Source: Dehalococcoidia bacterium
Lineage (GTDB): Bacteria; Chloroflexota; Dehalococcoidia; UBA2979
Reading direction: 5' to 3'
Assembly (NCBI GenBank): GCA_041390625.1
Contig: JAWKPM010000006.1
Location: 69,131 to 133,130 of the forward strand
Length of the DNA: 64,000 nt
Part shown: positions 4,193 through 56,904 of the stretch, piece after piece
Layout of the letters: the number at the start of each line of letters is the position of its first letter
Position numbering within the stretch: the stretch's first letter is position 1
Notes under the pieces: generated by a model
Told to the model about the DNA's origin: nothing
Databases searched by the model: none
What the model saw: only the letters and a program-made list of their open reading frames with translations
Program-made: the position numbers and the translations under genes

Positions 4193-4965
4193 TCGAGGAG
4201 TCCCATCGCGGCCTCGATGGCTGGGTCGACGACGGCGCGCTGACGGTCGTCCAGCAGGCGACGGACGGCGCCTGCGGCGAGGACGTAGAGGCGCAGGGCG
4301 GCGCGCGTCTGGGCCTCGAAGTCCTCGTTCGTTGTGCCGAGCGCACAGGCCTGGGTGCTCGCCCACGGCTCGCCGATGGTCCCGGCGACGGCGGCCCAGA
4401 GGCCGTTCTCGCTGTCGTAGAGCAGGCGGTGGTGGACGCTCATGATCCAGGGGAGGCGGAGAGCGAGGACGGAGCGCTGCACGGCCTCGGTGGCGGGCCA
4501 GCCGCGGGCGCGGGCGTTGAGGAGCTTCTGTACCTCCTCGGCGTATCCGGTGATCTGCTCGGCGACCCAGTCGTTGCAGATGGCCTCGCGGGCGTCGGTC
4601 CAGCGCCAGTTGGCCGCGACGCCTCGGAGGGCGTTCGCGATGCCGTCGGGGTCGGCGAGGATGACGGCGTTCCGCCAGCCGGGCACGGCGGCGCCGAGGA
4701 CGGCGGGGTCATCGAAGGATGCCCTGGTGCGTTCGGCGTAGCCCCAGCTGACGGAGACAAGCACCCCGTCGCGCCGCGAGAGGCGGTAGCCGGGGCCGCG
4801 CCCCTCCCCGTCGGCGATCACGCCGAGGTCGAGGTCGGAGTAGGGGCCGGCGTCGCCTCGCGCGTGGCTGCCGGCGAGCCAGACGGCGAGGGCGCCGGGC
4901 TCGCGCATGAGCTCGCCGGCTATGGCGCGGGCGAGGTCGAGTGCCGCCTCGTGAGTCGTGCTCAT
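4189..4965 (-). CDS. Pol-beta-superfamily nucleotidyltransferase domain protein, ANT/KNTase-like
   Basis: GSHARGDAGPYSDLDLGV fits the hG[GS]x9-13Dh[DE]h nucleotidyltransferase motif. 258 aa with a helical C-terminal half. Confidence 0.65.
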   Translation of the reverse strand: MSTTHEAALDLARAIAGELMREPGALAVWLAGSHARGDAGPYSDLDLGVIADGEGRGPGYRLSRRDGVLVSVSWGYAERTRASFDDPAVLGAAVPGWRNAVILADPDGIANALRGVAANWRWTDAREAICNDWVAEQITGYAEEVQKLLNARARGWPATEAVQRSVLALRLPWIMSVHHRLLYDSENGLWAAVAGTIGEPWASTQACALGTTNEDFEAQTRAALRLYVLAAGAVRRLLDDRQRAVVDPAIEAAMGLLE

Positions 4966-5075
4966 GGCGGCAGTATGGCAGACGCACGGCGCGGCCGAGG
5001 GTCCCCTCCTCGATGGCGGTTCGGCCCTCGGACGGGCGCGGCTTGGCGACGAGACTGGAGGCTCGCAATCGCACC

Positions 5076-5828
5076 ATGAAGCAGTTGGAACGAGGAGTCA
5101 TGACGACACCCAAGCACCGCCAGTGGCTCGGAGTCACGACGTTGCTGGCTGCCACGGCGGCCATTGCCGCATTCGCCGCGGTCTTCGGATGGCCGGGGCT
5201 CGCCTCGGCGCAGTCACCGGGCCCCGGAGCGGGCGGTCCTCGCGTGGGCGGCGGCGTCCACGGCGACGCGCCCACGCCCGGCGGGATCGGCCTGATGGTG
5301 ACCACTCGCGACCAGGATCGCGACCAGATCATGCTGCAGCTGCAGGACCAGGACTGTGAGCCGCTCACGCTGGCGACGCTCACCGACGGTCGCTGGCACA
5401 TCTACATCCCCGGCGGTCCGGCTCAGCTGCAGAGCGATTTCCCGCAGCAGCTGGCGGCGGACACGCCGTTCTTCGTGCGTTGCCGCGACGCGGCGCCTGC
5501 GGTGGTTCGCGTTGGCGCGGACGACAGCGGCTCGAGCGTGAGCCTCGAGGTGGGTCAGCGGCTTCGGGTGACGCTGGAGTCGAACCCCACGACCGGGTAC
5601 AGCTGGCAGCTCACCGGCGCGCCGGACCCGGCAGTCCTCGAGCAGGTGCTTGGGCCGATCTACATCGGTGGAGCGTCGGACCTCGTGGGGGCCGCCGGGA
5701 CCGAGACGTTCGACTTCCTCGCGGTGGGAGCGGGTACGACCTCGATCTCGCTGGAGTACGCGCGGCCGTTCGAGGCGAACTCGATGACGGATGCGTGGAC
5801 GATCGATGTGACGGTGACGGCGCCCTAG
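5076..5828 (+). CDS. Secreted chagasin-family (I42) cysteine-peptidase inhibitor with an N-terminal extension
   Basis: Signal peptide MTTPKHRQWLGVTTLLAATAAIAAFAAV. The C-terminal domain has the three chagasin loops: NPTTGYSWQ, GAAGTETFDF and YARPFE. The start may be ATG 5076 or ATG 5100. Confidence 0.8.
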   Translation: MKQLERGVMTTPKHRQWLGVTTLLAATAAIAAFAAVFGWPGLASAQSPGPGAGGPRVGGGVHGDAPTPGGIGLMVTTRDQDRDQIMLQLQDQDCEPLTLATLTDGRWHIYIPGGPAQLQSDFPQQLAADTPFFVRCRDAAPAVVRVGADDSGSSVSLEVGQRLRVTLESNPTTGYSWQLTGAPDPAVLEQVLGPIYIGGASDLVGAAGTETFDFLAVGAGTTSISLEYARPFEANSMTDAWTIDVTVTAP

Positions 5829-6014: not shown

Positions 6015-7967
6015 CTAGACGAGAGTGACAGGCTCCCAGCGCTTTTCGAGCTGCTCGCGGAGGCGGGCGGCCTTCTCCGGGCCGTGCTTTGCCGTGACGA
6101 GGTCCACGATCTTGTGGCGGCATTCGCCGTTCACGTCCTGGTGGCCGCAGACGTTGCAGGGGAAGCGCTTGCAGTCGAGCGTGACCTCCTCGTTGAGGGT
6201 CTTCATCCACTCGCCTCGGAGGAAGGGCTTCTGCGTCGCGGAGTCGATGTGGTCCCACGGCAGCGCCTCCCAGAGGTCGCGGTCGCGGTGGGCGTAGTCG
6301 GCGGGGTTCAGGCCGTGCTGGTCGAAGGCCTGCTGCCAGATCGACCAGTCGTGACGCTCGGACCAGGCATCGAAGGTGGCGCCGTTGCGCCAGGCGGTCT
6401 CGATGACGTCGGCGACGCGGCGGTCGCCCCTCGAGAGCACGGCCTCGAGGAGGGACTTCTCGGGGTCCTCCCATGTGAACTGGACGCCGGCGCGCTTGCA
6501 GCCGTCGCGCAGGAGGCGGTGGCGGCGTCGCAGCGTCTCGGCGTCGCACTGGGCGAGCCACTGGTAGGGCGTGTGCGCCTTCGGGATGAAGTTCGAGGTG
6601 GAGACGCGCACGCGGGCGCGGCCGCCGATGTGCCTACGGCCGATGGCCTTCACCTCGGAGGCGATGCGCACGATCTCCTCGACGTCGAAGTCGGTCTCGG
6701 TGGGCTGGCCGACCATGAAGTACATCTTGATCGAGGTCCAGCCGTTGGCGAAGGCGTTCTCAGCGGCTGAGAGCAGCTGCTCCTCGGTGATGAGCTTGTT
6801 GATGGTGTTGCGGAGGCGCTGCGAGCCGGCCTCGGGGGCGAGGGTGAGGGTGTGCTTCTTGCCTCGGGCGACGGCGTTCGCGATCTCGACGGAGAACGAG
6901 TCGACGCGGGTCGAAGGGATCGAGATCTTGAGGCCTCGATCGCCGTAGGCGTCCATGAGGGCGTGGACCATGGGCGCGATCTCGGTGTGGTCGGTCGTGG
7001 AGAGCGACATCAGCGAGAGCTCCTGGTAGCCGGTGTTGTCGAGGAGCTCGCCGGCGGCGCGCACGACCTCCTCGACGGAGCGCTCGCGGGTGGGGCGGTA
7101 GATCATCCCGGCCTGGCAGAAGCGGCAGCCCTGGGTGCAGCCGCGCTGGATCTCGATGGTGGCGCGGTCGTGGACGACCTCCATGAAGGGGACGATCGGC
7201 TTCGTGAGGGGCGGGGGCAGCTGCTGGACGACGCGGCGGACGACGCGCGCGGGAGCGGCCTCGTCGATGGGAACGGTCTCGAGGTAGCGCCCGGCCTCGT
7301 CGTAGCGGGCTTCGTACAGCGAGGGGACGTAGACGCCCCAGACGCGGGCGAGGCGGCGGTAGAGCTCGATGCGGGGCTCGCCCGAGGTCTTCCAGTCGCG
7401 GACGGCGTTCGCCACGTCCTCGATGACCTCTTCGCCCTCGCCGCAGACGAACGCGTCGAAGAAGGCGTGCATCGGCTCCGGCTCGAGGGCGGCCGAGCCG
7501 CCGGCGATGACGATGGTGTCGTCGCGGCCTCGGTCGGCGGCGCGGATGGGGATGCCGGCGAGGTCGAGCAGGTTCAGGACGTTGGTGAAGCAGACCTCGT
7601 ACTGGAGCGTGATGCCGAGGATGTCGAAGTCGCTCACAGGGTGGCGCGTCTCGAGGGAGCGCAGCGGCTCGTTGTGCTCTCGGAGCAGCGCCTCGAAGTC
7701 GGTCCAGGGCGAGAAGACGCGCTCGCAGAGCGTGTCGTCCCGCTTGTTGAGGATGTCGTAGAGGATGGCCAGGCCGAGGTTCGACATGCCGAGGTCGTAG
7801 AGGTCGGGGTAGGCGAGCACCACGCGCAGGTCGCGGGCGTCCCAGTCCTTTGCGATCGAGTGGAGCTCGCCGCCGGCGTAGCGGGTGGGCTTCTGAACGC
7901 GGCCAATCAGTCGCTCGTAGATCGACGAGTCGGAGGTCGCGGCCGGTCGTTCGATGGTGGTGGTCAT
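6015..7967 (-). CDS. Radical SAM protein of the TIGR03960-like uncharacterised family, about 650 aa
   Basis: CTQGCRFC (Cx3Cx2C) radical SAM cluster motif. The six-frame ORF runs to 8669, but homology begins at MTTTIERP (ATG at 7967). Confidence 0.8.
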   Translation of the reverse strand: MTTTIERPAATSDSSIYERLIGRVQKPTRYAGGELHSIAKDWDARDLRVVLAYPDLYDLGMSNLGLAILYDILNKRDDTLCERVFSPWTDFEALLREHNEPLRSLETRHPVSDFDILGITLQYEVCFTNVLNLLDLAGIPIRAADRGRDDTIVIAGGSAALEPEPMHAFFDAFVCGEGEEVIEDVANAVRDWKTSGEPRIELYRRLARVWGVYVPSLYEARYDEAGRYLETVPIDEAAPARVVRRVVQQLPPPLTKPIVPFMEVVHDRATIEIQRGCTQGCRFCQAGMIYRPTRERSVEEVVRAAGELLDNTGYQELSLMSLSTTDHTEIAPMVHALMDAYGDRGLKISIPSTRVDSFSVEIANAVARGKKHTLTLAPEAGSQRLRNTINKLITEEQLLSAAENAFANGWTSIKMYFMVGQPTETDFDVEEIVRIASEVKAIGRRHIGGRARVRVSTSNFIPKAHTPYQWLAQCDAETLRRRHRLLRDGCKRAGVQFTWEDPEKSLLEAVLSRGDRRVADVIETAWRNGATFDAWSERHDWSIWQQAFDQHGLNPADYAHRDRDLWEALPWDHIDSATQKPFLRGEWMKTLNEEVTLDCKRFPCNVCGHQDVNGECRHKIVDLVTAKHGPEKAARLREQLEKRWEPVTLV

Positions 7968-8177
7968 CGGAGGGTCCTCACGTGGGGCTGCGGTGTGGCC
8001 GGGCGCGCGACGCGCCTCGGGCCCCGGGAATCGTGGTCCGCATGCTGGGATTCGTGGTTGCTTCGAGTGATCAGGGTACCCATTGGTCCCAAGCCGACGC
8101 CAGCGTTCGGGGTGATTCTCGGTGCTTGCCGGGTGCCGTACGATGAGGACCTCGCGGAGGGTTTGCTGGAGGCATGG

Positions 8178-8258
8178 ATGCGCAAGGCACTTGGGCTCGT
8201 CGTACTGGTCGGCGTCGTCACCGCCGGTGTCGGCATGTGGTGGTGGCGCAAGGCCTAG
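8178..8258 (+). CDS. Candidate 26-aa single-transmembrane micro-protein
   Basis: GGAGG lies 6 nt upstream of the ATG. Translation is MRKALGLVVLVGVVTAGVGMWWWRKA. It is absent from the ORF track because it is short. It sits in the divergent promoter region between the radical SAM and MBL genes. Confidence 0.3.
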   Translation: MRKALGLVVLVGVVTAGVGMWWWRKA

Positions 8259-8358
8259 CCTCGACGGGGTAGCCCCCGCCTCGAGTCTCACTTCTCGGCA
8301 GCGGAATCTGCGATTCGCGACCTCGCCACGCGAGGTGTGACTGTGCCCGGGAGCAGCC

Positions 8359-9156
8359 ATGCATCGAACGAACGTCGGCGACATCGAGATCACCGCGCTG
8401 ATCGACATGGTGCAGGCGTACGGCGCCGCGGGTGTGTACTCCGAGGCCGGTGACGCACTGCAGCAGTACGCCCAGTTCCTCGATGGCGAAGGCAAGGTCA
8501 CGCTCAACTTCGCCTGCTTCCTGCTGCGGGCCGACGGGCGCACCGTCCTCGTGGATGCGGGGAACGGGCCGGAGGCGGACGGGAAGCTCCTCGAGGAGCT
8601 CGAGGCGGCCGGGGTGAGCGCCGGCGACATCGACGCGGTGCTGTTCACGCACCTGCACGGCGACCACACGGGCTGGAACCTCGTGCGGGAGAGTGGGCAA
8701 CCTCGATTCCCGAACGCGCGGTACCTCGTGCCGCAGGGCGACTGGAATCACTACCGCGTGCAGGACCCGCAGCCGAAGTCGTTCGTGCGCGACATGCTGC
8801 CGCTCGATGCCCTCGGGGTGATGGATCTCGTGGCTGGGGAGTACGAGATCACGCCGTCCCTCGTGACGTGGCACACGCCGGGGCACACGCCCGGCCATCT
8901 CTCGGTGGTGGCGAAGTCGGGCGGGGTGGAGGCGTACGTCATCGGGGACGCGCTGCTCACGCCCATCGATGTGGCGGAACCGGACTGGGTGACGACCTGG
9001 GACTGGGACGCCGAGCACGTGCGGGCGACGCGTCGAGCGCTGATCGAGCGCGTCGAGGCCTCGAACGCCCTCGTGGCGGCGTCGCATCTGCCGGTGCCGG
9101 GGCTCGGTCACCTCGCGACCGAGGGCGGGCGACGGGTGTTCCAGCCGCTCGGGTAG
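8359..9156 (+). CDS. MBL-fold metallo-hydrolase
   Basis: THLHGDHTG metal-binding motif. GGGAG RBS 5 nt upstream. 265 aa. Confidence 0.85.
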   Translation: MHRTNVGDIEITALIDMVQAYGAAGVYSEAGDALQQYAQFLDGEGKVTLNFACFLLRADGRTVLVDAGNGPEADGKLLEELEAAGVSAGDIDAVLFTHLHGDHTGWNLVRESGQPRFPNARYLVPQGDWNHYRVQDPQPKSFVRDMLPLDALGVMDLVAGEYEITPSLVTWHTPGHTPGHLSVVAKSGGVEAYVIGDALLTPIDVAEPDWVTTWDWDAEHVRATRRALIERVEASNALVAASHLPVPGLGHLATEGGRRVFQPLG

Positions 9157-12339: not shown

Positions 12340-12606
12340 ATGCCGTACCGCCGTTCGCCGAGTGTGATCTTCGAGGTCGTGGATGGGCGCGCGATGCTCG
12401 TCTCCGCCGACGGGTCCGAGCTGCTCTCGCTCAACCCGGTGGGGACGCGCGTGTGGCAGCTGGTCGACGAGCACGAGGGCGACTCGGGTCGCCTGGCCTC
12501 GGCGTTGCTGTCGGAGATCGAGGGCGTCGAGCGCGACGAGCTCGAGCGCGACATTGCCGACTTCCTCTCCACGCTCTCCAGCGAGTCGCTCATCGAGCAG
12601 CGCTGA
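12340..12606 (+). CDS. PqqD-family protein, RiPP precursor recognition element-like
   Basis: 88 aa. VVDGRAMLVSADGSELLSLNPVGTRVWQLVDEH...DELERDIADFLSTL fits the PqqD pattern (winged helix, acidic C-terminal helix). Its stop overlaps the next start (TGATG). Confidence 0.75.
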   Translation: MPYRRSPSVIFEVVDGRAMLVSADGSELLSLNPVGTRVWQLVDEHEGDSGRLASALLSEIEGVERDELERDIADFLSTLSSESLIEQR

Positions 12607-13370
12607 TGCTCGAGGTCCAGCACCTCTCGAAGCGCTTCGAGCCGCCGCCGTTCTGGCTGCGGCTGCTCAGCCGTGTCGCCGCGCCGGAACCGGTGCAGGC
12701 GCTGGCCGGCGTCTCATTCGACGTCGCGCCCGGCGAGGTGGTGGGGCTGGTCGGCGCGAACGGCGCCGGGAAGACCACGCTGCTGCGGACGGTCGCGGGC
12801 CTCGTCGTGCCCTCGGAGGGGGACGTGCGCGTCGGCGGCCTCGACCCGACGCGCGACGGCGCGGCGCGGCAGCTCATGGGCATCGCGATGGCGGACGACC
12901 GCGGGTTCTACTGGCGTCTGAACGGTCGACGGAACCTCGAGCTGTTCGGGGTGCTGGGCGGGCTCACGCCGGCCGCGGCGGAGGCTCGCGCCGACGAGCT
13001 GCTCATCGAGGCAGGCCTCGCGCATCGGGACCGGATGCTGTTCGGGTACTCGTCCGGGATGATCACGCGGCTGCAACTGGCGCGCGCCTTCCTCGCGATG
13101 CCGCCACTGCTGCTCCTCGATGAGCCGACGCGCAGCCTCGACCCGGTCGTCAGCAAGCAGGTGCGCAGGTGGATCCGGGGGGCGGCCGACCGCGGCGCCG
13201 CAGTGCTGTTCTCCAGCCACGACCTCGATGAGGTGGTGGAGGTCTGCGACCGCGTGCTCGTGCTGAACTCGGGCGTCGTCGTGCGCCACGAGGCGGCGGC
13301 CAACCTGCGCGGTGAGGCCGAGCTGGGGGTGCGGTCGTTGCTGCAGTCGATCGAGCCGGTGGCCTCGTGA
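12606..13370 (+). CDS. ABC transporter ATP-binding protein, exporter type
   Basis: Walker A GANGAGKTT, signature YSSGM, Walker B LLLLDEPT, H-loop SSHD. Confidence 0.9.
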   Translation: MLEVQHLSKRFEPPPFWLRLLSRVAAPEPVQALAGVSFDVAPGEVVGLVGANGAGKTTLLRTVAGLVVPSEGDVRVGGLDPTRDGAARQLMGIAMADDRGFYWRLNGRRNLELFGVLGGLTPAAAEARADELLIEAGLAHRDRMLFGYSSGMITRLQLARAFLAMPPLLLLDEPTRSLDPVVSKQVRRWIRGAADRGAAVLFSSHDLDEVVEVCDRVLVLNSGVVVRHEAAANLRGEAELGVRSLLQSIEPVAS

Positions 13371-14197
13371 GCGCGGCGTTCGCACGGCCGTCGTCGAACC
13401 TCGAGCGGGTGATTGCGCTCGGGAAGCGCGATCTGCGGGTGCAGCTGTCGTACCACTTCGGGCAGCTGATGCAGCTGCTGGCGATCGCGATGCCGATCGT
13501 CACGTTCTTCTACGTCTCGCAGCTCGTGGGCGACGACTCGGCGCTCGGGGACTACCAGGGCGGGTACTTCGAGTTCGTGCTCATCGGGTTGGTAGCGACG
13601 ACGTTGTCGACCCTCGGTGCGCGGCTGTTCAGCACGATGGTGGCGCGGGAGCAGAGCGAGGGCACACTCGACGCGCTGCTGCGCACGCCGACGCCGCTGT
13701 GGGTGCTGCTAGCCGGTTCAACGCTGTGGCCGCTCGGGTTCGCGGCGCTGGAGATCGGCGTGTACCTCGGTGTCGGCGCCGGCGCCCTCGGTGCCGGCTT
13801 CTCGGCCAGCGGGCTGCTGCTGGCGCTGCCGGTGGCGCTGCTGACGGTCGCGGTGTTCGCGGCGATCGGCATCTTCTCGGCGGCGTTCATCGTCGTCACG
13901 AAGCGGGGTGAGCCGCTGGGGCCGCTGGTGAACGCGGCGACCTCGCTGTTCGCCGGTGCGCTGTTCCCGGTGGCACTGCTGCCGGGCGCGCTGCAGGTCG
14001 TGGGACGGATGCTGCCTTCGTACTACGCCATCGAGGGGTTGCGCGAGGCGCTCCTCGGCGCGGGGACGTTCGCCTCGGTCGCCGACGAGATCGCCATCCT
14101 CGGCGTCATGGCGGCGGTGCTGCTTCCGCTCTCGGTGTGGACGCTGTCGCAGGCGCTGCGCTGGGGCCGCATCTCCGGCACGCTGGCCAGCTTCTAA
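13367..14197 (+). CDS. ABC-2 type transporter permease
   Basis: GTGA overlap with the ATPase gene. Six predicted TM segments. Typical ABC-2 exporter layout. Confidence 0.8.
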   Translation: MSAAFARPSSNLERVIALGKRDLRVQLSYHFGQLMQLLAIAMPIVTFFYVSQLVGDDSALGDYQGGYFEFVLIGLVATTLSTLGARLFSTMVAREQSEGTLDALLRTPTPLWVLLAGSTLWPLGFAALEIGVYLGVGAGALGAGFSASGLLLALPVALLTVAVFAAIGIFSAAFIVVTKRGEPLGPLVNAATSLFAGALFPVALLPGALQVVGRMLPSYYAIEGLREALLGAGTFASVADEIAILGVMAAVLLPLSVWTLSQALRWGRISGTLASF

Positions 14198-14268
14198 GCC
14201 AGCTTTCGACACTCGGCAGGCTTCGGTGCGATGCGTGGCCTCGGGCGAGGTCGGTCGGGTGTCCGCGC

Positions 14269-15225
14269 CTAGGCGACGCGCGTGTCGGACGCAGAGGCGA
14301 TGGTGTCGAGGAGGCGACCGGCGTCGGCGACGCGCGTCGCGGGGTCGGCGCCGAGGCGCAGGCGCCAGGCGGGGCCGCGGGCGACGGTGGAGGCAAGCGG
14401 CATGAGGCGCGTCAGGGCCTCGTGGCTGCCGGCGGCGGGGTGTGAGGCGACGAGCTCGCGCAGCAGCTCGAGGGCGTTGGCGGGCTCGGTGTAGCCGAGC
14501 GCGCTCTTCGCATGGTCGAGCCAGAGCGTGCCGGCGAGCGGATGCCAGCCGGCGCCCAGCACGGTGGCCGGGAGCTGCCAGCGCTCGCGTGCGTCGCGGG
14601 TCATGCGTCGGGCGCCGGCGGGGATGCCGTCGGCGAGCTCGCCGGGGACGGCGACCGGCTTCGGGATGCCGCAGATCTCGACGGGAGTCTCGGCGCCGTC
14701 CTCGGAACGGCGCAGGACGACGTGGTCGTCGCCGAGGATGCGCCAGCCGGAGCGGTGCGCGGCGAAGGTGGTGGTCGACTTGCCTCGACCGCTCGCGCCC
14801 ATGACGAGGAGCGCGATGCCGTCGCGCTCGATGGCGGCGGCGTGGAGGAGCGGGCGCTCGAAGGGCGAGAGGAGGTCGGCGAGCACGGGCTGGCCGATCC
14901 AGGCCAGCCGGCGCGCGAGGTCCGGCCCATCGCCTCGGATTGTGGCATCGCCGCCGGCGACGCGGGCGGTGAGGCCCCAGCACTCGACGGTGTAGGTGTC
15001 GCCGTCGCGCCAGCCGAGCTGGCCGCCCACGTCCTCGTCCGGGTCGCGAGTCGGGAGATCGAGGGCGCCGGGTGCGAACTCGATGCGGGCCCGGGGCCGG
15101 AGTCGGGTCGGCGCGAGCGTGCCGAAGGCGGTCGCGAGCGCCTTGCGATGCCGGGCGGTCGTGCCCACGAACTCGGTGGGGAGGTCGCCCAGGAGACGGA
15201 CGGGGTTGGGGTCTCGAGCGGTCAT
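14269..15225 (-). CDS. HPr-kinase (HprK) C-terminal-domain-like P-loop kinase, RiPP-associated type
   Basis: P-loop GASGRGKST followed by ILGDDHVVL, which resembles the HprK LxADDxV motif. 318 aa. Last gene of the minus-strand operon with the peptidase and nucleotidyltransferase. Confidence 0.7.
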   Translation of the reverse strand: MTARDPNPVRLLGDLPTEFVGTTARHRKALATAFGTLAPTRLRPRARIEFAPGALDLPTRDPDEDVGGQLGWRDGDTYTVECWGLTARVAGGDATIRGDGPDLARRLAWIGQPVLADLLSPFERPLLHAAAIERDGIALLVMGASGRGKSTTTFAAHRSGWRILGDDHVVLRRSEDGAETPVEICGIPKPVAVPGELADGIPAGARRMTRDARERWQLPATVLGAGWHPLAGTLWLDHAKSALGYTEPANALELLRELVASHPAAGSHEALTRLMPLASTVARGPAWRLRLGADPATRVADAGRLLDTIASASDTRVA

Positions 15226-15328
15226 GCGCGGGCCTCGTGCCGGTGTCTACGTCAGGGGCGAGCGTAGATTTCGAGGCGCGTCAAACGCGTAGGAGGGGCG
15301 TATCGATTCGTTTTTGGCCGCGTGGGTG

Positions 15329-15358
15329 GGGTGGACGGCGGAAGTCCGCCGTCCACCC
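15329..15358 (-). promoter_or_regulatory. Perfect 12-bp GC stem-loop immediately downstream of the candidate precursor ORF
   Basis: ggtggacggcgg-aagt-ccgccgtccacc, plus a flanking g/c pair. It lies 12 nt past the stop of the 15370..15477 ORF and upstream of the kinase gene. No U-tract follows, so it is more likely a processing or attenuation hairpin than a full terminator. Confidence 0.4.
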
Positions 15359-15369
15359 GCCCGTCGTGA

Positions 15370-15477
15370 CTAGCGGTTCCGGAAGAAGAAGTAGTTTCCG
15401 GAGTAGTTGCCGCTCCCACGGTGGAGCTGGCCAACGACGCTGACACGCTCCTCAATAGCCGGCTTCTGGTACGTCAC
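15370..15477 (-). CDS. Candidate RiPP precursor peptide, 35 aa
   Basis: A minus-strand small ORF not in the ORF track. AGGAGG lies 4 nt upstream of the GTG. Translation is MTYQKPAIEERVSVVGQLHRGSGNYSGNYFFFRNR. Same strand as, and between, the S24 peptidase and HprK-like kinase genes. Confidence 0.35.
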   Translation of the reverse strand: MTYQKPAIEERVSVVGQLHRGSGNYSGNYFFFRNR

Positions 15478-15591
15478 GGGTCCTCCTACGTGAACCTGGG
15501 TGGAGCCAGATCTTTGGGCCCACGCGCGCAAGCGCACGTATGGCGATCGTAAGAAGGCGGAAGACCTTCCGATGAAGGCGGTGAGCGGCCT

Positions 15592-16053
15592 TCAGCGGCC
15601 AAGCCAGCGCCGGACGCGGCGCGCGCCGAGGCGGACCGCCAGGCCTCGGAGGGTGCGGTGGGCGAGGGCGATCGCCGTCGGCGGGAGGCGGCGGACGCCA
15701 TCGAGGGGGGCGGTGCGGCCGTTGCGGCGGACGCGGACGGCGCGGCCGACGAGCATCGAAGGCTCGACGGGCGGGTCGTCGTGCTGTGCGTCGCCCGCGA
15801 AGCGCATCGAGCGGCCGCGGCGGCCGAGGTAGCGGTGCACGACGAGGACGCCCGCGGCATCGACGTAGGCCCACACCTCGCCGAGGCGCGGGCCTCGGTT
15901 GGCGACCTCGAGCAGGACCTCGCTGCCGGCGCGGATGGTGCGGCCCATCGAATCGCCCTCGACGGGGAGCCAGAGGCCGCCGGCCTGCACGCGTCGACGC
16001 AGGAGGTCGGCGCTCGCGGGAGAGCGCGACTCGCTGCCGGCATCGGAGGTCAC
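15592..16053 (-). CDS. S24/S26-family serine peptidase, LexA/signal-peptidase-like
   Basis: The GTG start overlaps the stop of the upstream gene (GTGA). GDSMGRT is the catalytic Ser motif shared by LexA and type I signal peptidase. About 153 aa. The longer ORF-track start (16182) would lie inside the upstream gene. Confidence 0.6.
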   Translation of the reverse strand: MTSDAGSESRSPASADLLRRRVQAGGLWLPVEGDSMGRTIRAGSEVLLEVANRGPRLGEVWAYVDAAGVLVVHRYLGRRGRSMRFAGDAQHDDPPVEPSMLVGRAVRVRRNGRTAPLDGVRRLPPTAIALAHRTLRGLAVRLGARRVRRWLGR

Positions 16054-17072
16054 ACGCTGCCTCGGACCCACGCGGCCGCGGCCTCGGGTGTCGCGCCGCG
16101 CACGAGCAGGGGCAGGAAGCGCAGGCGGCGGCGGTCGCCGCCGGGGGAGCCGGTGCCGAGGAGGCGCTGGCTCGGTCCCCACAGGCGTCGCCAGAGGGCG
16201 GGTCGCCAGCCACGAGGGGCTCCCGGGAGGCCGGGCGGGGGATCGAGGCCGAGCGTGACGAGGACGGTGCGCAGCGTCTCGTGGACGGGGACCTCGGCGC
16301 CCTCGCGCCTCGTCATGCGCCAGAAGGCGGGCCAGTCGACGGCCTCCTGCTCGTCTTCGGGGATCAGCATGCGGGCGATGTCGGCGTAGCCGATCAGGTA
16401 GCGGAAGCGGTCGCGGTTCGTGTGGAGGAGGAGCTGGAGCAGCGCGGCCTCGGGGGCGAGGACGAGCGCCTCGGGACCGTCCTCGATGGCGATGGGGTGC
16501 ACGCCCTGCCAGAGCGCGCGCGGGTCGCGCGGCGTGACGCCGAGGCGCAGGAGGTCGAAGTGCACATCGACGGCGACCGTGCCGAGGTCGGTCGTGATGG
16601 GGACCTCGAGGACGGGAAGGCGCGACGCCTCGAGGGCGGCGCGCTTCTTCCTCGGGACCTCGAACTCAGGGGCGAGGGCCTCGACGAGGCGAGCGCCCTC
16701 GGCTCGCTGGTCGGGGTTCAGCCAGACGTCGAGGTCGGAAGCGGGGCGCTCGCTCGGGCGGGCGTACCAGCGCGCGGCGGCAGTGACGCCCTTGAACGAC
16801 GCCACCTCGAGGCCGGCCTCGGCGGCGCGGCGCTGGACCTCGGCGAGGGCGGAGCGTAGGACGCGATGGTGCTGGCGGTTCGCGAGGTCGATGCGGAGGA
16901 GGCGGGCGCGGTCGGCGTCCTCCACGGTGACGGCACCGGCCTCGATGCGGCTCCAGAGCAGGCCGGCCATGCGGTGGTCGATCGCCTGGTCGACGACGGC
17001 CGGCGAGGCGTGACGACCCTCGACCGCGCGCCGGGCGGCGAGATCGAGCAGCAGCGCGTCGGGCAGGGGCAT
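16050..17072 (-). CDS. Nucleotidyltransferase family protein, PF14907-like uncharacterised NTase
   Basis: FKGVTAAARWYARPSERPASDLDVWL matches the hG[GS]x9-13DhD Pol-beta NTase motif. 340 aa. First gene of the minus-strand operon. Confidence 0.65.
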   Translation of the reverse strand: MPLPDALLLDLAARRAVEGRHASPAVVDQAIDHRMAGLLWSRIEAGAVTVEDADRARLLRIDLANRQHHRVLRSALAEVQRRAAEAGLEVASFKGVTAAARWYARPSERPASDLDVWLNPDQRAEGARLVEALAPEFEVPRKKRAALEASRLPVLEVPITTDLGTVAVDVHFDLLRLGVTPRDPRALWQGVHPIAIEDGPEALVLAPEAALLQLLLHTNRDRFRYLIGYADIARMLIPEDEQEAVDWPAFWRMTRREGAEVPVHETLRTVLVTLGLDPPPGLPGAPRGWRPALWRRLWGPSQRLLGTGSPGGDRRRLRFLPLLVRGATPEAAAAWVRGSV

Positions 17073-17183
17073 CGGCGCGACCTCGGGCGTGGTCGGGGCT
17101 CGGGCGTGCGAGGACGCCTCGAGCGTATCGCCCGCAGGCGGCGGCGAGGATCCTCGTTTGCCCGCAGTCGGCGCCGTTGGGTG

Positions 17184-18599
17184 CTAGTCGAGGACGGGCG
17201 GTGTGCGCTCGCCGTGGCGCGTGGCGGCCTCGAAGGCGTGCGCGAGCTGCAGCACGCCGAAGTCGTCGTGGTGGCGACCGACGATCTGGACGCCGACGGG
17301 CATGCCCTCGGGCGTCCAGCCGGCGGGGACGGAGATCGAGGGGTGGCCGAGCGGGGTGATCAGGTAGCAGGAGCGCATCCAGTCGATGTAGGACTCCATC
17401 TGCACGCCATCGATCTCGGTGGGGTACTCGGTCTCGACGTCGAACGGCGGCACCTGGTTCACGGGCATGATCATGAACTCGTACTGCTCCATGAAGGCGC
17501 GGACGCGGCCGTAGTAGGCGGAGCGCAGGGCCTCGGCGCGTGAGATGTCGGCACCGCTGAGGCGCTGGCCTTCCTCGATCTCGCGGACGATCGTGGCCTT
17601 GAGCTGGTCGCGGTGATTCGCGTAGCGGTCGGCGTGACGGTGGGCGGAGGCCCACGCACGGAGGGTCTTGAAGGCCTCGTCGGCGCCGGTGAAGTCGGGC
17701 TGTGCGGCCTCGACGGTGGCGCCCAGCGACTCGAGGACGGGGATCGTCGACTCGATGACGGCGCGGATGCGGGGGTCGACGGGGAGGCCGCCGAGGTCGG
17801 CGACGTAGGCGATGCGCGTGCCTCGGAAGTCGCGGTCGAGCGGCGCGGCGAACATCGAGCCGGGCTGCTCGATTGAGAGCGGCGCGCGCGGGTCGGGGCC
17901 AGCCATCGCGCTGAGGAGGAGGGCGACGTCGCCAACGTTGCGCCCCATCGGGCCGGTGACGGACATGTTCGTCCAGGCGAGGGGCGGCGTGGCGGGGACG
18001 CGGCCGTTCGAGGCACGGAAGCCGACGACGTTGTTGAAGTTGGCGGGGTTGCGCAGCGAGCCGCCGAGGTCCGAGCCGTCCGCAATCGGCAGCATGCGGC
18101 AGGCGAGCGCGACACCGGCGCCGCCGCTGCTGCCGCCCGCCGTCTTCGACGTGTCCCACGGGTTGAGGGTGGCGCCGAAGACCTGGTTGAAGGTGTGAGA
18201 GCCGGCGCCGAACTCCGGGGTGTTCGTCTTGCCGATGACGATGGCGCCGGCGGCCTTGAGTCGCTCGACGACGATGGCGTCCTGCGTCGGCACGTCGTCG
18301 GCGTGGATCGGCGAGCCCTGGGTGGTGCGGATGCCTTTCGTCGGGACGAGGTCCTTGATGGCGATGGGGAGGCCGTGGAGCGGGCCCGGCTCCTCGCCCC
18401 GGGCGAGGGCGTCATCGGCGGCGCGTGCGCCCTCGAGGGCGAGGTCGGGGCGCAGCGTCACGATCGCGTTCACCTTCGGGTTCACGCGGTCGATCTGGGC
18501 GAGGTGGGCCTCCATGACCTCGACGGCGGAGAGGTCGCGGGCCGCGAGGCGGGCGCGGAGCTCGCGGGCGGTGAGCAGGCAGATCGAGGTGTCGGGCAT
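17184..18599 (-). CDS. Amidase (amidase-signature family)
   Basis: GGSSGGAG signature plus the conserved K/S/S triad context. Start chosen at ATG 18599 (MPDTSICLL). Confidence 0.9.
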   Translation of the reverse strand: MPDTSICLLTARELRARLAARDLSAVEVMEAHLAQIDRVNPKVNAIVTLRPDLALEGARAADDALARGEEPGPLHGLPIAIKDLVPTKGIRTTQGSPIHADDVPTQDAIVVERLKAAGAIVIGKTNTPEFGAGSHTFNQVFGATLNPWDTSKTAGGSSGGAGVALACRMLPIADGSDLGGSLRNPANFNNVVGFRASNGRVPATPPLAWTNMSVTGPMGRNVGDVALLLSAMAGPDPRAPLSIEQPGSMFAAPLDRDFRGTRIAYVADLGGLPVDPRIRAVIESTIPVLESLGATVEAAQPDFTGADEAFKTLRAWASAHRHADRYANHRDQLKATIVREIEEGQRLSGADISRAEALRSAYYGRVRAFMEQYEFMIMPVNQVPPFDVETEYPTEIDGVQMESYIDWMRSCYLITPLGHPSISVPAGWTPEGMPVGVQIVGRHHDDFGVLQLAHAFEAATRHGERTPPVLD

Positions 18600-19953: not shown

Positions 19954-20018
19954 GGCCGCGGGCGGTGGTGTCCTCGGTCGCGCGCGGGCCTCGCCGCCTC
20001 GTATGCTCTTGGGGCACG

Positions 20019-20094
20019 CGCCGGTAGCTCAGCGGATAGAGCATCAGTCTTCGGAACTGAGGGTCGGGGGTTCGAATCCCTCCCGGCGCGCCAC
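20019..20094 (+). tRNA. tRNA-Arg, anticodon TCG
   Basis: 7-bp acceptor stem gcgccgg/ccggcgc. D-stem gctc/gagc. Anticodon stem tcagt/actga with loop ctTCGga. T-arm ggggg-ttcgaat-ccctc. Discriminator G. CCA is encoded. Confidence 0.85.
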
Positions 20095-23180: not shown

Positions 23181-23264
23181 CCGCTGAGGCGGTTGTGCAG
23201 AACTGGCGTTCTGTACGCTATACTCCGCGCGTCTCGCCGTCCCTCGCGACCACCGGCCTACGCC

Positions 23265-24284
23265 ATGACCGTCCGCCTGCTGCCCTGGGCGCCCGAATAC
23301 GGCACATCGATGCAGTTCGATGCGGACGAGGGCGCGCGTGGCGAGGGATCCCCACGCGTCGACGTCGACACCACGGTCGAACAGGCCTCGTGGGCGGCGG
23401 TGCGGGCCTCGGGTGAGGCGCCCTCGACGGTCCAGGTCGTCGACGGGGTGCGTCGCGCGGAGGCGCACGCGCTGGAGGACGGGCCGGGCGGCGAGCCGCT
23501 GTTCGGGCTGTTCGGGTCGTATGCCGTCGGGGCGGTGCGCCTCGAGGGCGGACGGGCGCGCATCCTCGAGGACGCGGTGCGCGTCGAGCGGCGCTACTTC
23601 CAGGCCGGCGGCGAGCCCTCGGATCGGGTCTTCAACGTCGGCGGGCACGCGATGAGCTTTCGCGCCGAGGTGCGGCCCGAGGCAACGACGGCGAACGGCC
23701 TCGTGGACGCGCTCAACCGCGCGATGCTCGACGAGGAATCGAAGCTGGCGGAGTCGCTCTCGCGCGACGAGAGCGCGCTGACGCTCGTTGATGGACCGCT
23801 GAGGAGCCTGCGCTCGCCCGGCCGTCGGGCCGTCGGCTACGTGAAGCGGGTCGTGCACTGGTACGTCTCACCGGAAGCGCAGCGGCTGCTGCCGCGCCTC
23901 GAGGTGGGCGAGCGGACGCCGCTGTTTCGCCTCGACGACGCGGCCGACCTCGGCCGGCCCGGACGCACGAGCTGGTTCCTGCGCATCGCGGATCTCGGGG
24001 CGAGCTGGCATCCCCTCGGCGGGATCATGCGCCTCGAGGTGCCGGGCGGGCTGCCGATCGCGGAGGCCGTTGCGCTCGCGGACCAAAGCGCGATCGTGCT
24101 CCCTCGACTGGCGTCCTCGCCGCATCGGGACCCGCGCGCGCCGCAGAACCTGACGCCGGTGGGCGCGCTCGAGGAGGCGCTGACGCACCGCCTCGGTGAC
24201 CGGCTGTGGGTGCGTCGGTTGATCACCGCGCACGTCGCGGAGGCGGAGCGCGCCTCGTGGGCGCTGCCGGGAGCGGTGCGATGA
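23265..24284 (+). CDS. nurA: NurA-like 5'-3' nuclease
   Basis: About 340 aa. LTLVDGPLRSL resembles the NurA catalytic D-G-S/P motif. The stop overlaps the start of the downstream HerA-like ATPase (ATGA), the canonical NurA-HerA pairing. TTG 23193 is an alternative start. Confidence 0.6.
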   Translation: MTVRLLPWAPEYGTSMQFDADEGARGEGSPRVDVDTTVEQASWAAVRASGEAPSTVQVVDGVRRAEAHALEDGPGGEPLFGLFGSYAVGAVRLEGGRARILEDAVRVERRYFQAGGEPSDRVFNVGGHAMSFRAEVRPEATTANGLVDALNRAMLDEESKLAESLSRDESALTLVDGPLRSLRSPGRRAVGYVKRVVHWYVSPEAQRLLPRLEVGERTPLFRLDDAADLGRPGRTSWFLRIADLGASWHPLGGIMRLEVPGGLPIAEAVALADQSAIVLPRLASSPHRDPRAPQNLTPVGALEEALTHRLGDRLWVRRLITAHVAEAERASWALPGAVR

Positions 24285-26017
24285 CCGAGGGAACGCCGAA
24301 CGGCCTCGAAGCGTTCGCCGCGGCGCTGCCGCCCTCCCTCGAGGGTGAGGCAACCGGCTGGGTGCTGGGGACGCCACAGAACGCGGCGACGCCCCTCGAC
24401 TTCTGGGTGTACGTCGACCCGCAGCACTACCTCCAGCTCGACGACGTCGTGCACGTGCGCTCGTCATTGCCGGACGGCCGGGACGTCGACGTCTACGGCG
24501 TGGTGGACGAGGTGCGGGCGACGCACGAGGGCGTGCGCTTCGAGTCGGACGTCGTGCTGGCGACGGCGGGCACGCTGCCGGTCGAGACCTCGGTCGCGGC
24601 GCACGTCTCGGTGACACGCGTCGAGCCGGAGATCTTCGTGCCGCCGATGCCCGGGCGGGCGGTGTCGCGGGCGCACGGCGCGGCGCGCGAGGAGGCGCTA
24701 TTCTTCGACCGCATGCCGGTGCGCATTCCCCTCGGCCTCTCGCGGTCGGGGGAGTCCGTGTTCGGGAACTTCGACTTCCTGAACGGCACACGCGGCGCGC
24801 ACGTGAACATCAGCGGCATCTCGGGCGTCGCGACGAAGACCTCGTACGCGATGTTCCTGCTGTACGGGCTGCTCGAGGGCGGGGCGCTGGGGGCGGAGGC
24901 GCACACGGCGCGGTCGCTCATCTTCAACGTGAAGGGCGAGGACCTGCTGTTCCTCGATCAGCCGAACGCGGGCCTCGATGGCGACGACCGGGCGCGGTAC
25001 GAGGCGCTCGACCTGCCGGCGCGGCCGTTCCAGTCGGTGGCGTTCTTCGCGCCGGTGAAGCGCGGCAACGAGACCGTGCCGGACACCGGATCGCGGATGG
25101 ACGGGGTGACCGGCTTCTACTGGACGCTGCGCGAGTTCTGCGCCGAAGGCTACCTGCGCTTCCTCTTCACCGACGCCGACGACGACCGATCGCAGCTGGG
25201 CTACATCGTCGACCTCGTGACGCGGCAGCTGCAGATCGTCGCGCGGCTCTCGCCGGCGGACCGCCCGACCGTGCAGATCGCGGGTTCGACGGTCGCGACG
25301 TTCGACGAGCTGGTGGACGCGATCGAGGAGATGACCGACCCGGATGCGGGCGGGACGTGGGCGAGCCGCGCGGCGGCCGGCACCGTGCACGCCTTCCTGC
25401 GCCGCCTCGAGGCCTCGGCGGCGCACGTCGGACACCTCATTCGCGGGAACGCGCCGGGGCACGACGCGCCGCATCGCGTCGACTGGACGCGCACGCAGGT
25501 GACGGTGGTGGACCTCAACCGCCTCCACGATCGCGCCCAGCGCTTCGTCGTCGGCGTGGTGCTGAAGCGGATGTTCGAGGACCGGCTGGCGAGCGGGCAC
25601 AACCGGCCGCTGACGTTCGTCGTCCTCGATGAGCTGAACAAATACGCGCCACGCGAGGGCTCGAGCCCGATCAAGGACGTGCTGCTCGACATCGCCGAGC
25701 GCGGTCGATCCCTCGGGGTGGTGCTGATCGGGGCGCAGCAGACGGCCTCGGAGGTCGAGCCTCGGGTGGTGGCGAACTGCTCGTATCGGGTCGTGGGGCG
25801 CCTCGATGCTGCCGAGGCACAGCGCGGGGAGTACCGCTTCCTCACGCAGGCGGCGCGTGCGCGGGCGAGCCTGCTCAAGCCGGGGAGCCTGATCCTCCAG
25901 CAGCCCGACATCCCGGTGCCGCTGCTCGTGCAATTCCCGCGGCCGGCGTGGGCGACCCGGCCCTCCGAGGTCCCGGAGCGCGCAGACAGCGACGTTTTCG
26001 CGGCGTTCGGCGAGTAG
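24281..26017 (+). CDS. herA: HerA-like FtsK/HerA-clade ATPase (DUF87-type)
   Basis: 578 aa. Walker B VVLDELNKY. C-terminal RGRSLGVVLIGAQQTASEV, a HerA-type arginine-finger region. The Walker A region is degenerate (ISGISGVATKTS). Confidence 0.65.
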   Translation: MTEGTPNGLEAFAAALPPSLEGEATGWVLGTPQNAATPLDFWVYVDPQHYLQLDDVVHVRSSLPDGRDVDVYGVVDEVRATHEGVRFESDVVLATAGTLPVETSVAAHVSVTRVEPEIFVPPMPGRAVSRAHGAAREEALFFDRMPVRIPLGLSRSGESVFGNFDFLNGTRGAHVNISGISGVATKTSYAMFLLYGLLEGGALGAEAHTARSLIFNVKGEDLLFLDQPNAGLDGDDRARYEALDLPARPFQSVAFFAPVKRGNETVPDTGSRMDGVTGFYWTLREFCAEGYLRFLFTDADDDRSQLGYIVDLVTRQLQIVARLSPADRPTVQIAGSTVATFDELVDAIEEMTDPDAGGTWASRAAAGTVHAFLRRLEASAAHVGHLIRGNAPGHDAPHRVDWTRTQVTVVDLNRLHDRAQRFVVGVVLKRMFEDRLASGHNRPLTFVVLDELNKYAPREGSSPIKDVLLDIAERGRSLGVVLIGAQQTASEVEPRVVANCSYRVVGRLDAAEAQRGEYRFLTQAARARASLLKPGSLILQQPDIPVPLLVQFPRPAWATRPSEVPERADSDVFAAFGE

Positions 26018-26027
26018 GAGGCCACCG

Positions 26028-27215
26028 ATGCGCTTCCTGCATACGGCCGACTGGCACCTCGGTCGCACGATTCGCGGGCGGAGCCGCCAGGCGGAGTTCG
26101 AGACGGTGCTGGCGGAGGTCGTGGCGATCGCGCGTTCGGAGCAGGTCGAGGCGGTGCTCGTCTGCGGCGACATCTACGACACGACGACGCCGTCGCCGGA
26201 CTCCGAGCGGCTGCTATACGAGACGCTGCGCGAGCTGATCGGCCTCGACGTGCAGGTGCTGCTGCTGGCGGGGAACCACGACAACCCTCGACGGCTCGAT
26301 GCGCTGGGGCGGCTGTCTGACCTCCTCGGGGTGCACGTGCGCTGGATGCCGCGGCCGGCGGACCAGGGCGGGGTCGTGCACCTCGTGGGGCGGGAGCATG
26401 AGGCGCGGATCGCCGCCGTACCGTGGATCGCGGAGGGGCGGCTCGTCGACGCCGAAGCGCTGTTCGGCCTCGATCGTGACGCGCGCATCGCGGGCTACGC
26501 CGACAGCGCGGCCGCGATCCTGAAGGCGGTGTGTCGCGGCTTCGAGCCGGACACGGTCAACCTCCTCGCGGCGCACATCTTCATCGATGGAGCGCAGCTC
26601 GCGGCCCTCGATGGGTCGGAGCGGCTGCTGCACGTTGGGCAGACGTACGGCATCAACCCGGCCGCGCTGCCCGCGACGCCGCAGTACATGGCACTCGGCC
26701 ACATCCACCAGCCGCAGGAGGTGCGGTCGGCGCCGGCGCCTGCGGCGTACTCGGGATCGCTGTTGCAGCTCGACTTCGGTGAGCGGGGGCAGCAGAAGGT
26801 CGTGCGGATCATCGATGCCGTGCCGGGGCGGCCCGTCGAGCAGCGGGCCGTGCCGCTGACCTCGGGGCGCCCGCTCGTCGAGCTGCGCGGATCGTTCGAC
26901 GAGGTGCTGCGCGAGGCGGGGGACGTCGGTGACGCCCACCTGCGCGTGGTCCTCGATGTGGAGCGGCCGGAGCCGGGGATGGCGCAGCGGTTGCGGGACG
27001 CGGTCGCGGGCGTCGTCGATGTGAGGCTGCAGTACGAGCGCACGGACCTCGATGAGCCGACGCCGGACCTCGCGCAGCTCGCGCCGACGGACCTCTTCGC
27101 GCGCTACTACCGCACGCAGCACGGGGCGGAGCCGGCGCCGGAGTTGCTGGCGCTGTTCAGCGAGCTGTTCGAGGCCGAGTCCTCGATCGAAGCGGGCGTC
27201 GAGGTGGGCTCGTGA
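26028..27215 (+). CDS. sbcD: SbcD/Mre11 nuclease
   Basis: AGGAGG RBS. Phosphoesterase motifs TADWHLG, VCGDIYD and AGNHD. Confidence 0.9.
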   Translation: MRFLHTADWHLGRTIRGRSRQAEFETVLAEVVAIARSEQVEAVLVCGDIYDTTTPSPDSERLLYETLRELIGLDVQVLLLAGNHDNPRRLDALGRLSDLLGVHVRWMPRPADQGGVVHLVGREHEARIAAVPWIAEGRLVDAEALFGLDRDARIAGYADSAAAILKAVCRGFEPDTVNLLAAHIFIDGAQLAALDGSERLLHVGQTYGINPAALPATPQYMALGHIHQPQEVRSAPAPAAYSGSLLQLDFGERGQQKVVRIIDAVPGRPVEQRAVPLTSGRPLVELRGSFDEVLREAGDVGDAHLRVVLDVERPEPGMAQRLRDAVAGVVDVRLQYERTDLDEPTPDLAQLAPTDLFARYYRTQHGAEPAPELLALFSELFEAESSIEAGVEVGS

Positions 27216-56646: not shown

Positions 56647-56904
56647 CGCTTCGACCTCCACATGCGGCAGAGGTCGATGCACACGAGCCCGGCGCGAGGG
56701 AGGGTGCGCCGAACCTCGTGCCGTCGCCTCGTCCTCGAAGGCTAGACACGGCGCAGGTCGGCGACCTGGCTTGCCGCCTCGGTGTCCGGGGACGCCGGGC
56801 GGATCACAGTTGCGGGACAGCGCCGGCATCTCACCGGCTTCCCCGAGCACTGCGCCGGGAGGGAGCCTAGCACCGCGCGGGACGTCCGGCGAGACGGGCG
56901 AGCG

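Follow-up and report, generated by a model that had tools for sequence, protein, structure and literature searches.

Linear polyphosphorylated peptides (LPPs), a family of RiPPs, i.e., peptides which are synthesised ribosomally and modified post-translationally, were described only in 2026, when the gene cluster lppA-K-B-S-D-N of Paenibacillus alginolyticus was reported (Popov et al. 2026, Nat Commun 17:6633, PMC13381572). According to that report, LPP clusters encode a signal peptidase I (SpI)-like protease, LppS, whose residues S29/H68/D93 were found to be essential by experiment, a discrete RiPP recognition element (RRE), LppB, an HprK-like kinase, LppK, an NTP_transf_5 protein, LppN, and an MsbA-like pump, whereby the precursors comprise 35-200 aa, carry the motif YxxPxVLxHQxIxFET/xxS (the slash marking the border between leader and core) and possess Gly/Asn-rich cores. 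LppK was found to add up to four phosphates to core Ser3 and to accept neither S3T nor S3Y, LppS takes off the leader only with the RRE present, and LppN was without detectable effect, the final LPP product and its function being unknown; phosphorylation and RRE-dependent cleavage were shown only for the P. alginolyticus LppA, and the authors stated LPPs to be restricted to Bacillota (PMC13381572). Related chemistry was reported for phosphorylated and phosphoglycosylated lasso peptides, where HPr-kinase homologues phosphorylate the C-terminal Ser of precursors such as that of paeninodin in a leader-dependent manner, and where, in the case of pseudomycoidin, a nucleotidyltransferase puts hexoses on the phosphate (PMC8498205). 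The subject of the present work is a minus-strand open reading frame (ORF) of 35 codons which resides within a stretch of 64,000 nucleotides (the window) from a Dehalococcoidia bacterium (assembly GCA_041390625.1, contig JAWKPM010000006.1, positions 69,131 to 133,130). Judged by its sequence relationships, this ORF very likely encodes an LppA-like precursor, which a cassette of seven genes, whose gene content is homologous to that of the LPP clusters, would convert in a leader-dependent manner into a linear RiPP phosphorylated at Ser.

The ORF starts with GTG at 15477-15475, stops with TAG at 15372-15370 and translates into MTYQKPAIEERVSVVGQLHRGSGNYSGNYFFFRNR. These boundaries, the AGGAGG sequence 4 nt 5' of the start codon and the location between, and co-oriented with, the genes of an S24/S26-like peptidase and an HprK-like kinase agree with the initial annotation of this DNA, which had put the ORF forward as a candidate RiPP precursor with about 20 leader-like residues followed by a distinct C-terminal part. 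By itself, an ORF of 35 codons is no better than chance in DNA of 71% GC (16 kb of window DNA hold 147 ORFs of at least 30 aa), and as small ORFs are that abundant in GC-rich DNA, its status as a precursor rests on conservation. The G+C content at third codon positions (GC3), 0.83 as compared to 0.63 for the overlapping alternative frames, points towards coding, and it is for this reason, together with conservation elsewhere, that the ORF was taken as real. A genome scan with the kinase alignment yielded 25 loci and a metagenome scan with the peptidase alignment 54 loci, from which 47 distinct homologous peptides were collected; word-indexed searches of protein collections with the kinase and peptidase profiles, to which a candidate prefilter was applied, gave 7 and 9 matches, respectively. 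Hosts identified by the genome scan were mainly Dehalococcoidia, Acidimicrobiia, Ilumatobacteraceae and Solirubrobacterales, other phyla such as Bdellovibrionota contributing single weak matches, so that relatives of the cassette are to be found in other Dehalococcoidia and Actinomycetota metagenome-assembled genomes (MAGs) and in soil and sediment metagenomes. Anchored at the Tyr residue, the 47 peptides follow the consensus Y-E-x-P-x-I-V-E-R-x-x-V-x-G-x-L, with Tyr and Pro invariant, Arg at +8 present in 41 of the 47 and conservation ending after +15, and this amino-acid motif is kept across phyla although the DNA has diverged. The tails which follow are hypervariable, with Gly as the commonest residue, but each of them (47/47) holds Ser, which is followed by G, D or P in 38; among the six Dehalococcoidia-type peptides a GSG motif is invariant except for one PSG. 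A conserved leader joined to a hypervariable core is the signature of a RiPP precursor, and on the strength of these alignments the ORF is a real, conserved member of this kind, which bears out the observation and, in essence, the interpretation of the initial annotation.

Equivalent genes recur in varied genomic settings. Called genes of 35-38 aa were found at the equivalent position in cassettes whose kinase shares 49-53% identity with that of the window (MTYETPKIVERTSVVGQLQKGSGPRNGGGGRGGRR, MTYEEPEIVEVVNVVGQLNRGSGNGYAYGIGRGNGPK and MTYEQPKIVDRTSVVGQLNLGSGNYTQSKRGGRRGGRR), three loci (L003, L006, L013) hold a precursor in a matching cassette with unrelated flanking genes, up to four tandem precursor copies occur per locus, with several loci holding three or four, and precursors as short as 27-35 residues exist among the related loci. 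Homologous ORFs are likewise preceded by GGAGG/GGAG sites and begin with ATG at the same residue. The closest relative, a peptide of 89% identity from JGI metagenomes (L001), also lies between the peptidase and kinase genes; compared to it, codons 1-25 of the window ORF show four synonymous and no nonsynonymous changes, while codons 26-35 show two synonymous and four nonsynonymous ones. An NCBI Dehalococcoidia MAG encodes a protein (P0002) which agrees with the window kinase at 100% identity, and the peptidase of this MAG is annotated as well (P0010). The precursor was not recovered from the protein collection for that MAG in a search which used a 55-aa extended ORF as query and of which the sole peptide recovered was the 89% identical JGI homologue. 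It hence appears to be unannotated in the NCBI MAG, an annotation gap which is corrected here.

The 114-nt spacer which separates the peptidase gene from the precursor ORF (15478-15591) and that between hairpin and kinase gene (15226-15328), both read on the minus strand, are for the most part conserved as DNA when the window is compared to L001. These spacers may hold the precursor promoter and the translation signals of the kinase; a simple scan identified no sigma-70-like site in them, and likewise no promoter or terminator was found by such a scan in 14100-17300.

Two further groups of precursors deserve mention in their own right. At the Acidimicrobiaceae loci L008/L009/L010/L017 (~7345-7848 in L008), L016 (3233-3722) and L019 (5230-5804), three to four tandem precursors (MKYEAPAIVDRQAVEGLM..xSDxxxx) are divergent from an HprK-like kinase gene, and within ~6 kb no PqqD, SpI-like peptidase, nucleotidyltransferase or ABC-2 genes were identified by tblastn, while two nearby ORFs (214 and 325 aa) are without Pfam match. 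Locus L029 holds three tandem copies at 5047-5468 (VEYRPPAVEHRQRIDDPLVLG...SPSWTDEDE...) with strongly acidic tails; those of the Dehalococcoidia are basic and Gly-rich, hence tail chemistry differs sharply between clades.

Comparison with the LPP precursors, whose sequences were taken from the supplement of PMC13381572, revealed partial agreement in layout. YxxPx[V/I] occurs in both, as do hydrophobic residues 5 and 11 positions past the Tyr and a Ser some 18-19 residues after it, followed by hypervariable Gly/Asn-rich cores, whereby a resemblance to the window peptide in layout and core composition is seen for LPP precursors such as MTKKPYAPPSVLSHQKVSFETKASGNDNGGGDGGGPGGNFWS and an LPP core such as MTKKPYAPPSVLSHQKVSFETKASGNDNGGG resembles the end of the window peptide (...VVGQLHRGSGNYSGNY). 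In terms of the LPP motif, the window peptide possesses YxxPx[I/V], the hydrophobic residue at +11 and a conserved block reaching to +15, with HQ...FET being replaced by R..V.G.L. The initial annotation had further named binding of a synthetic leader by the PqqD protein as a check, and the sequences are consistent with such binding, as YxxPx[I/V] is a motif bound by PqqD-type RREs and the cassette PqqD keeps two leader-contacting residues: it shares 27% identity with LppB over 74 aa (E = 2e-6), with N32/D71 aligning with LppB N33/D70, which fix the Tyr and Pro residues of the leader. Its best relative of solved structure is the lasso RRE TbiB1 (9e-7), PbaB1, TfuB1 and LppB being matched as well, and it matches the model lasso_PqqD_Bac below cut-off. 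The top PDB matches of the PqqD query, the designer propellers 'Cake' and 'Scone', were set aside as repeat-summed artefacts in which no single stretch is significant, and no LppA leader chain was found in the PDB when searching with the window peptide.

The second partner for which a direct relationship with an LPP protein was obtained is the protease. BLASTP aligned it with LppS at 31% identity over 97 aa (E = 1e-7), bringing S29/H68/D93 into register, and profile comparison with LppS (hhalign) gave 96.8% probability at E = 2.7e-10; by these alignments LppS and LppB are direct homologues of the protease and the RRE of the window, respectively. Among 11 homologues of the protease, Ser-Met, His-Arg and Gly-Asp motifs and a further Asp are invariant, Peptidase_S24 was matched in 10 of the 11 and TIGR02228 (archaeal-type signal peptidase I) in 9 (best 6.4e-10), while the family profile matches human SEC11A/C best (E about 2e-4). 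The AlphaFold2 model (pLDDT 84.8) places an N-terminal helix ahead of a beta core, with SEC11C/A and the LexA C-domain as top Foldseek matches; it shows no segment resembling a membrane anchor, the N-terminal helix being amphipathic and the C-terminal one Arg-rich. As read from sequence and model, the enzyme is a soluble Ser-His-Asp protease of the signal peptidase type known from the endoplasmic reticulum (ER). With the ER/archaeal-type signal peptidases (SEC11A/C, SipW; MEROPS S26B; TIGR02228) it thus shares fold and catalytic residues, but its gene is tied genomically to an RRE and a kinase, and its substrate is therefore predicted to be a RiPP leader instead of Sec signal peptides. Of the earlier designation 'S24 peptidase', the presence of a protease gene adjoining the ORF was upheld, whereas the family is better given as an ER/archaeal-type signal-peptidase-like leader peptidase. 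The window protease is furthermore 39% identical to an RRE-linked Micromonospora protein, which figures as an unanalysed singleton in the PMC13381572 data. In a Bdellovibrionota MAG (L032, ~450-1400), SpI-like peptidase and HprK-like kinase domains reside in one uninterrupted ORF with a PqqD gene just upstream; apparently this is a natural fusion, which would link the protease and kinase functions.

The remaining cassette members were identified among GC3-filtered ORFs by Pfam and NCBIfam scans, which revealed two converging operons at the locus (Table 1). The window kinase matches Hpr_kinase_C, TIGR04352 and TIGR04249, all below cut-off, and is labelled PF27840 ScmC; it resembles the HPr kinase 1ko7 around the P-loop, and both P-loop and HPr-kinase C-domain core are intact. 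Its similarity is highest to BsfK (31%, 1e-7), followed by PbaK (8e-6) and LppK (1e-3). For the NTP_transf_5 nucleotidyltransferase, a structure database search returned no relative of solved structure, and its match to LppN, which is classed as NTP_transf_5 in the domain table of PMC13381572, is weak (E = 0.001). By tblastn, kinase, S24/S26-like protein and PqqD were found to be the core set which recurs across loci, the ABC-2 pair being usually present and the nucleotidyltransferase only sometimes, as it is absent from many related loci outside the Dehalococcoidia. Taken as a whole, the window cassette contains the functional set of the LPP clusters, namely a short precursor, a PqqD-type RRE, a kinase of the HprK-like type, an SpI-like leader peptidase, an NTP_transf_5 protein and an exporter, and like these it has no cyclase.

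Downstream of the precursor gene the strand folds into GGGTGGACGGCGG-ACTT-CCGCCGTCCACCC (15358-15329). The perfect stem-loop previously noted at this position was thereby recovered, while its dimensions required correction from 12 to 13 bp for the stem and from 12 to 11 nt for the distance past the stop codon; folded in silico it reaches -39.6 kcal/mol (z = -4.1), with none of 200 shuffles folding as well. No T-run follows, which explains why the simple terminator scan missed it. Strong hairpins 3' of the precursor gene were found in 8 of the 11 loci folded, i.e., in the window and in L001, L003, L006, L013, L011, L024 and L028, the latter seven with stems of 12-16 bp. With the exception of L001, whose stem is nearly identical to that of the window, the stem sequences are unrelated among loci and yet the hairpin recurs, hence it is the structure and not the sequence which is conserved; the peptide, for its part, is conserved as protein. 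Located between precursor and kinase genes, the hairpin probably acts as a partial terminator or stabilises the mRNA at its 3' end.

Table 1. Precursor locus and cassette genes, with positions given relative to the window
Feature	Position	Strand	Basis or remark
Discrete PqqD-type RRE, 88 aa, LppB / lasso B1 analogue	12340..12606	+	PqqD PF05402, E = 3.1e-13
ABC transporter ATPase, DrrA-like	12606..13370	+	ATG overlaps PqqD stop (TGATG)
ABC-2 permease, DrrB-like, probable product exporter	13367..14197	+	Pfam/NCBIfam scans; conserved in cassette
HprK-like (ScmC-type) kinase, putative peptide Ser kinase, LppK analogue	14269..15225	-	P-loop GASGRGKST
Perfect GC hairpin, 13-bp stem, 4-nt loop	15329..15358	-	Begins 11 nt past stop codon
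Predicted precursor peptide gene, lppA-like, 35 aa	15370..15477	-	GC3, conserved homologues, synonymous leader changes, register with LppA
Shine-Dalgarno sequence AGGAGG	15482..15487	-	ACCC (4 nt) separates AGGAGG from GTG start
Predicted soluble ER/archaeal-type signal-peptidase-like protease, LppS analogue, 153 aa	15592..16053	-	GTG start overlaps nucleotidyltransferase stop, 4 nt
NTP_transf_5 nucleotidyltransferase, LppN/PsmN analogue	16050..17072	-	PF14907, E = 3.6e-29, above cut-off

Several observations weigh against reading the cassette as an LPP system. The second half of the LPP leader, HQxIxFET, is absent from the window leader, which has R-x-x-V-x-G-x-L instead, and the distance from Tyr to Ser is 19 residues in the window as compared to 18 in LPP and takes values of 16 to 33 among the 47 peptides; as a consequence, Ser22 and the cleavage site are guesses. 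The exporter is of the two-gene ABC-2 type (DrrAB-like), which is kept in related cassettes, whereas that of LPP is MsbA-like, with fused transmembrane and nucleotide-binding domains. Taken alone, the window protease gives poor scores with the Pfam (E 0.055) and TIGR (E 0.21) models, and the hairpin has no U-tract, so that it is not a canonical intrinsic terminator. Kinase and nucleotidyltransferase match LppK and LppN weakly (E about 1e-3, the LPP sequences having been recovered by optical character recognition), and for kinase and RRE, lasso-type homologues (BsfK and TbiB1, respectively) are at least as close. As these two proteins are no closer to their LPP counterparts, parallel assembly from lasso-type parts is an option besides common descent with the Bacillota LPPs.

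Among the alternatives, the one which retains most weight, though it is unlikely, is that of a RiPP precursor subject to a chemistry other than that of LPPs, whereby, for example, Ser or Tyr would be nucleotidylated or glycosylated directly by the NTP_transf_5 enzyme, or the role of the ScmC-like 'kinase' would be that of a non-kinase or scaffold, as is possible in SynChlorMet-type cassettes. SynChlorMet (ScmC/ScmD; TIGR04249/TIGR04248) and the HprK-related kinase A system (TIGR04352) show the same pairing of an HprK-like with a PqqD-like protein as the window, and the kinase, while below the cut-off of every curated family, also matches ScmC (TIGR04249 / PF27840); the window scores are, however, far under the curated cut-offs (44.5 vs 200 for TIGR04352, 25.4 vs 125 bits for TIGR04249 and 22.1 vs 100 for TIGR04248), and the SynChlorMet radical SAM genes ScmE/ScmF were not found in the conserved cassette. 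That LppN has no known function even in the characterised system and that the position of Ser varies among the 47 peptides speaks for a different chemistry, as does the accessory nature of the nucleotidyltransferase, deduced from its lack in many related loci. Set against this are the intact P-loop and HPr-kinase C-domain core, the fact that the closest characterised relatives, BsfK, PbaK and LppK, are all peptide Ser kinases (PMC8498205), and the presence of at least one Ser in every tail.

Far less probable is that the ORF specifies the precursor of a lasso peptide, with the genes for cyclase and B2 protease located at another place in the genome. The YxxPxI leader and the RRE are indeed lasso-like, and the clusters of paeninodin and pseudomycoidin (PMC8498205, PMC6993621) are accompanied by an HPr-kinase homologue, an NTP_transf-type enzyme, a discrete B1 RRE binding [Y/W]xxP and an ABC exporter, as is the window peptide. 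They possess in addition a macrolactam cyclase (C) and a B2 Cys protease, both of which the window cassette is without: scans of the cassette, of window ORFs and of the differently flanked related cassettes revealed no gene for an Asn-synthase-like cyclase (Asn_synthase) or a transglutaminase-like protease (transglutaminase core). Neither does the peptide offer an Asp or Glu after residue 10, hence none for a macrolactam, the isopeptide bond of lasso cores involving Asp or Glu at position 7-9, nor a Thr at -2 or near the predicted junction; phosphorylation of the paeninodin type takes place at the C-terminal Ser, whereas the last residue of the window peptide is Arg and its core is without acidic residue, and the cassette has an alternative leader peptidase of its own, which is dedicated and invariably linked. 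The lasso reading was rejected on these grounds, and so was the comparably remote idea of an untranslated spacer, or of a regulatory leader ORF with an attenuator hairpin controlling the kinase and a peptide without function, for although chance ORFs of this size are abundant in GC-rich DNA and a hairpin does lie between ORF and kinase gene, the leader has only synonymous substitutions, its motif outlasts the divergence of the DNA, a strong Shine-Dalgarno sequence precedes it, the ATG starts of its homologues fall on the same residue, an attenuator is at odds with precursors in tandem and with their placement on either flank or either strand relative to the kinase, and an Rfam scan found no family at the locus.

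Considering the preferred reading, namely that of an LppA-like precursor, a pathway can be proposed in which, starting from the observed gene content, homology, catalytic residues and selection pattern, we infer every chemical step as well as both sites of action. Here, the discrete PqqD/RRE would bind the leader at Y3-x-x-P6-x-I8, as suggested by the motif and the conserved RRE residues, the leader being predicted to comprise about residues 1-18/19 (MTYQKPAIEERVSVVGQL[H]) and the core about residues 19/20-35 ([H]RGSGNYSGNYFFFRNR). Next, the HprK-like kinase would add at least one phosphate to a core Ser, most likely to Ser22 of the GSG motif, the candidate phospho-acceptor of the window peptide, by analogy with the action of LppK on Ser3. 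Ser and Tyr hydroxyls had both been regarded as plausible kinase targets; the core Ser modified in LPP (PMC13381572) agrees with the former, whereas Tyr is disfavoured, as LppK rejected S3T and S3Y. More speculatively, the NTP_transf_5 enzyme may add a sugar or nucleotide to the phosphate, as does PsmN in pseudomycoidin, although LppN was inactive in the published system. Subsequently, the protease may dock on the RRE-leader complex via its N-terminal helix and cut after about Leu18 or His19, whereby Leu18 is preferred because conservation ends there and because it is in register with T-1 of LppA. Finally, the ABC-2 pump would export a product of 16-17 residues rich in Gly, Asn, Tyr, Phe and Arg. 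The hairpin, by ending or stabilising most transcripts, would probably provide the precursor in excess over the downstream kinase.

Elsewhere in the window, 6015-8669 (-) codes for a radical SAM protein of 884 aa which possesses a Radical_SAM_N2 domain; it lies a few kb from the cassette, to which it is probably unrelated, as it is not conserved beside the cassette in other loci. The protein encoded at 4941-5828 (+) carries a peptidase-inhibitor domain of the chagasin family (I42) at its C-terminus. Just past the Eis-like GNAT gene which flanks the cassette, a tRNA gene is located at 20018-20090 (+) (Rfam RF00005, 69.8 bits), followed at 23193-30346 (+) by a row of genes for a NurA-domain protein (23193-24284), a 603-aa ORF product without Pfam match (24206-26017), an SbcD-like protein (26028-27215) and an SbcC/Rad50-like protein (27212-30346). 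A cobalamin riboswitch aptamer is present at 56760-56843 (-) (RF00174, 39.9 bits, above gathering score).

As the LPP family has already been described, the window precursor extends a known class and does not found a new one. Cassettes of the window type belong to Chloroflexota (Dehalococcoidia) and Actinomycetota, whereas the LPP systems were reported from Bacillota, and on the evidence of the homologies found they take the class beyond that phylum. It is conceivable, though the less likely option, that the Dehalococcoidia and Actinomycetota cassettes represent a deep lineage of their own among SpI-dependent phospho-RiPPs, one which was put together independently out of lasso-type parts or from which the Bacillota LPPs descend; this lineage would be widespread in soil and sediment bacteria, with cores of 12-20 residues that perhaps carry a still-unknown group added by NTP_transf_5 to phosphoserine, and with the Acidimicrobiaceae loci as a possible RRE-independent subtype. 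Counting the window and about 80 related loci, Chloroflexota, Actinomycetota and numerous metagenomes from soil and sediment have the combination of SpI-like protease, RRE and HprK-like kinase. The window core, with only 16-17 aa, is very short as compared to those of LPP, and unlike LPP clusters the cassette has no adjacent lasso or capsule locus. Small cores of this kind, encoded in compact, self-contained cassettes, are simpler substrates, and such minimal substrates could help to establish what the NTP_transf_5 enzyme adds and which role the mature product serves.

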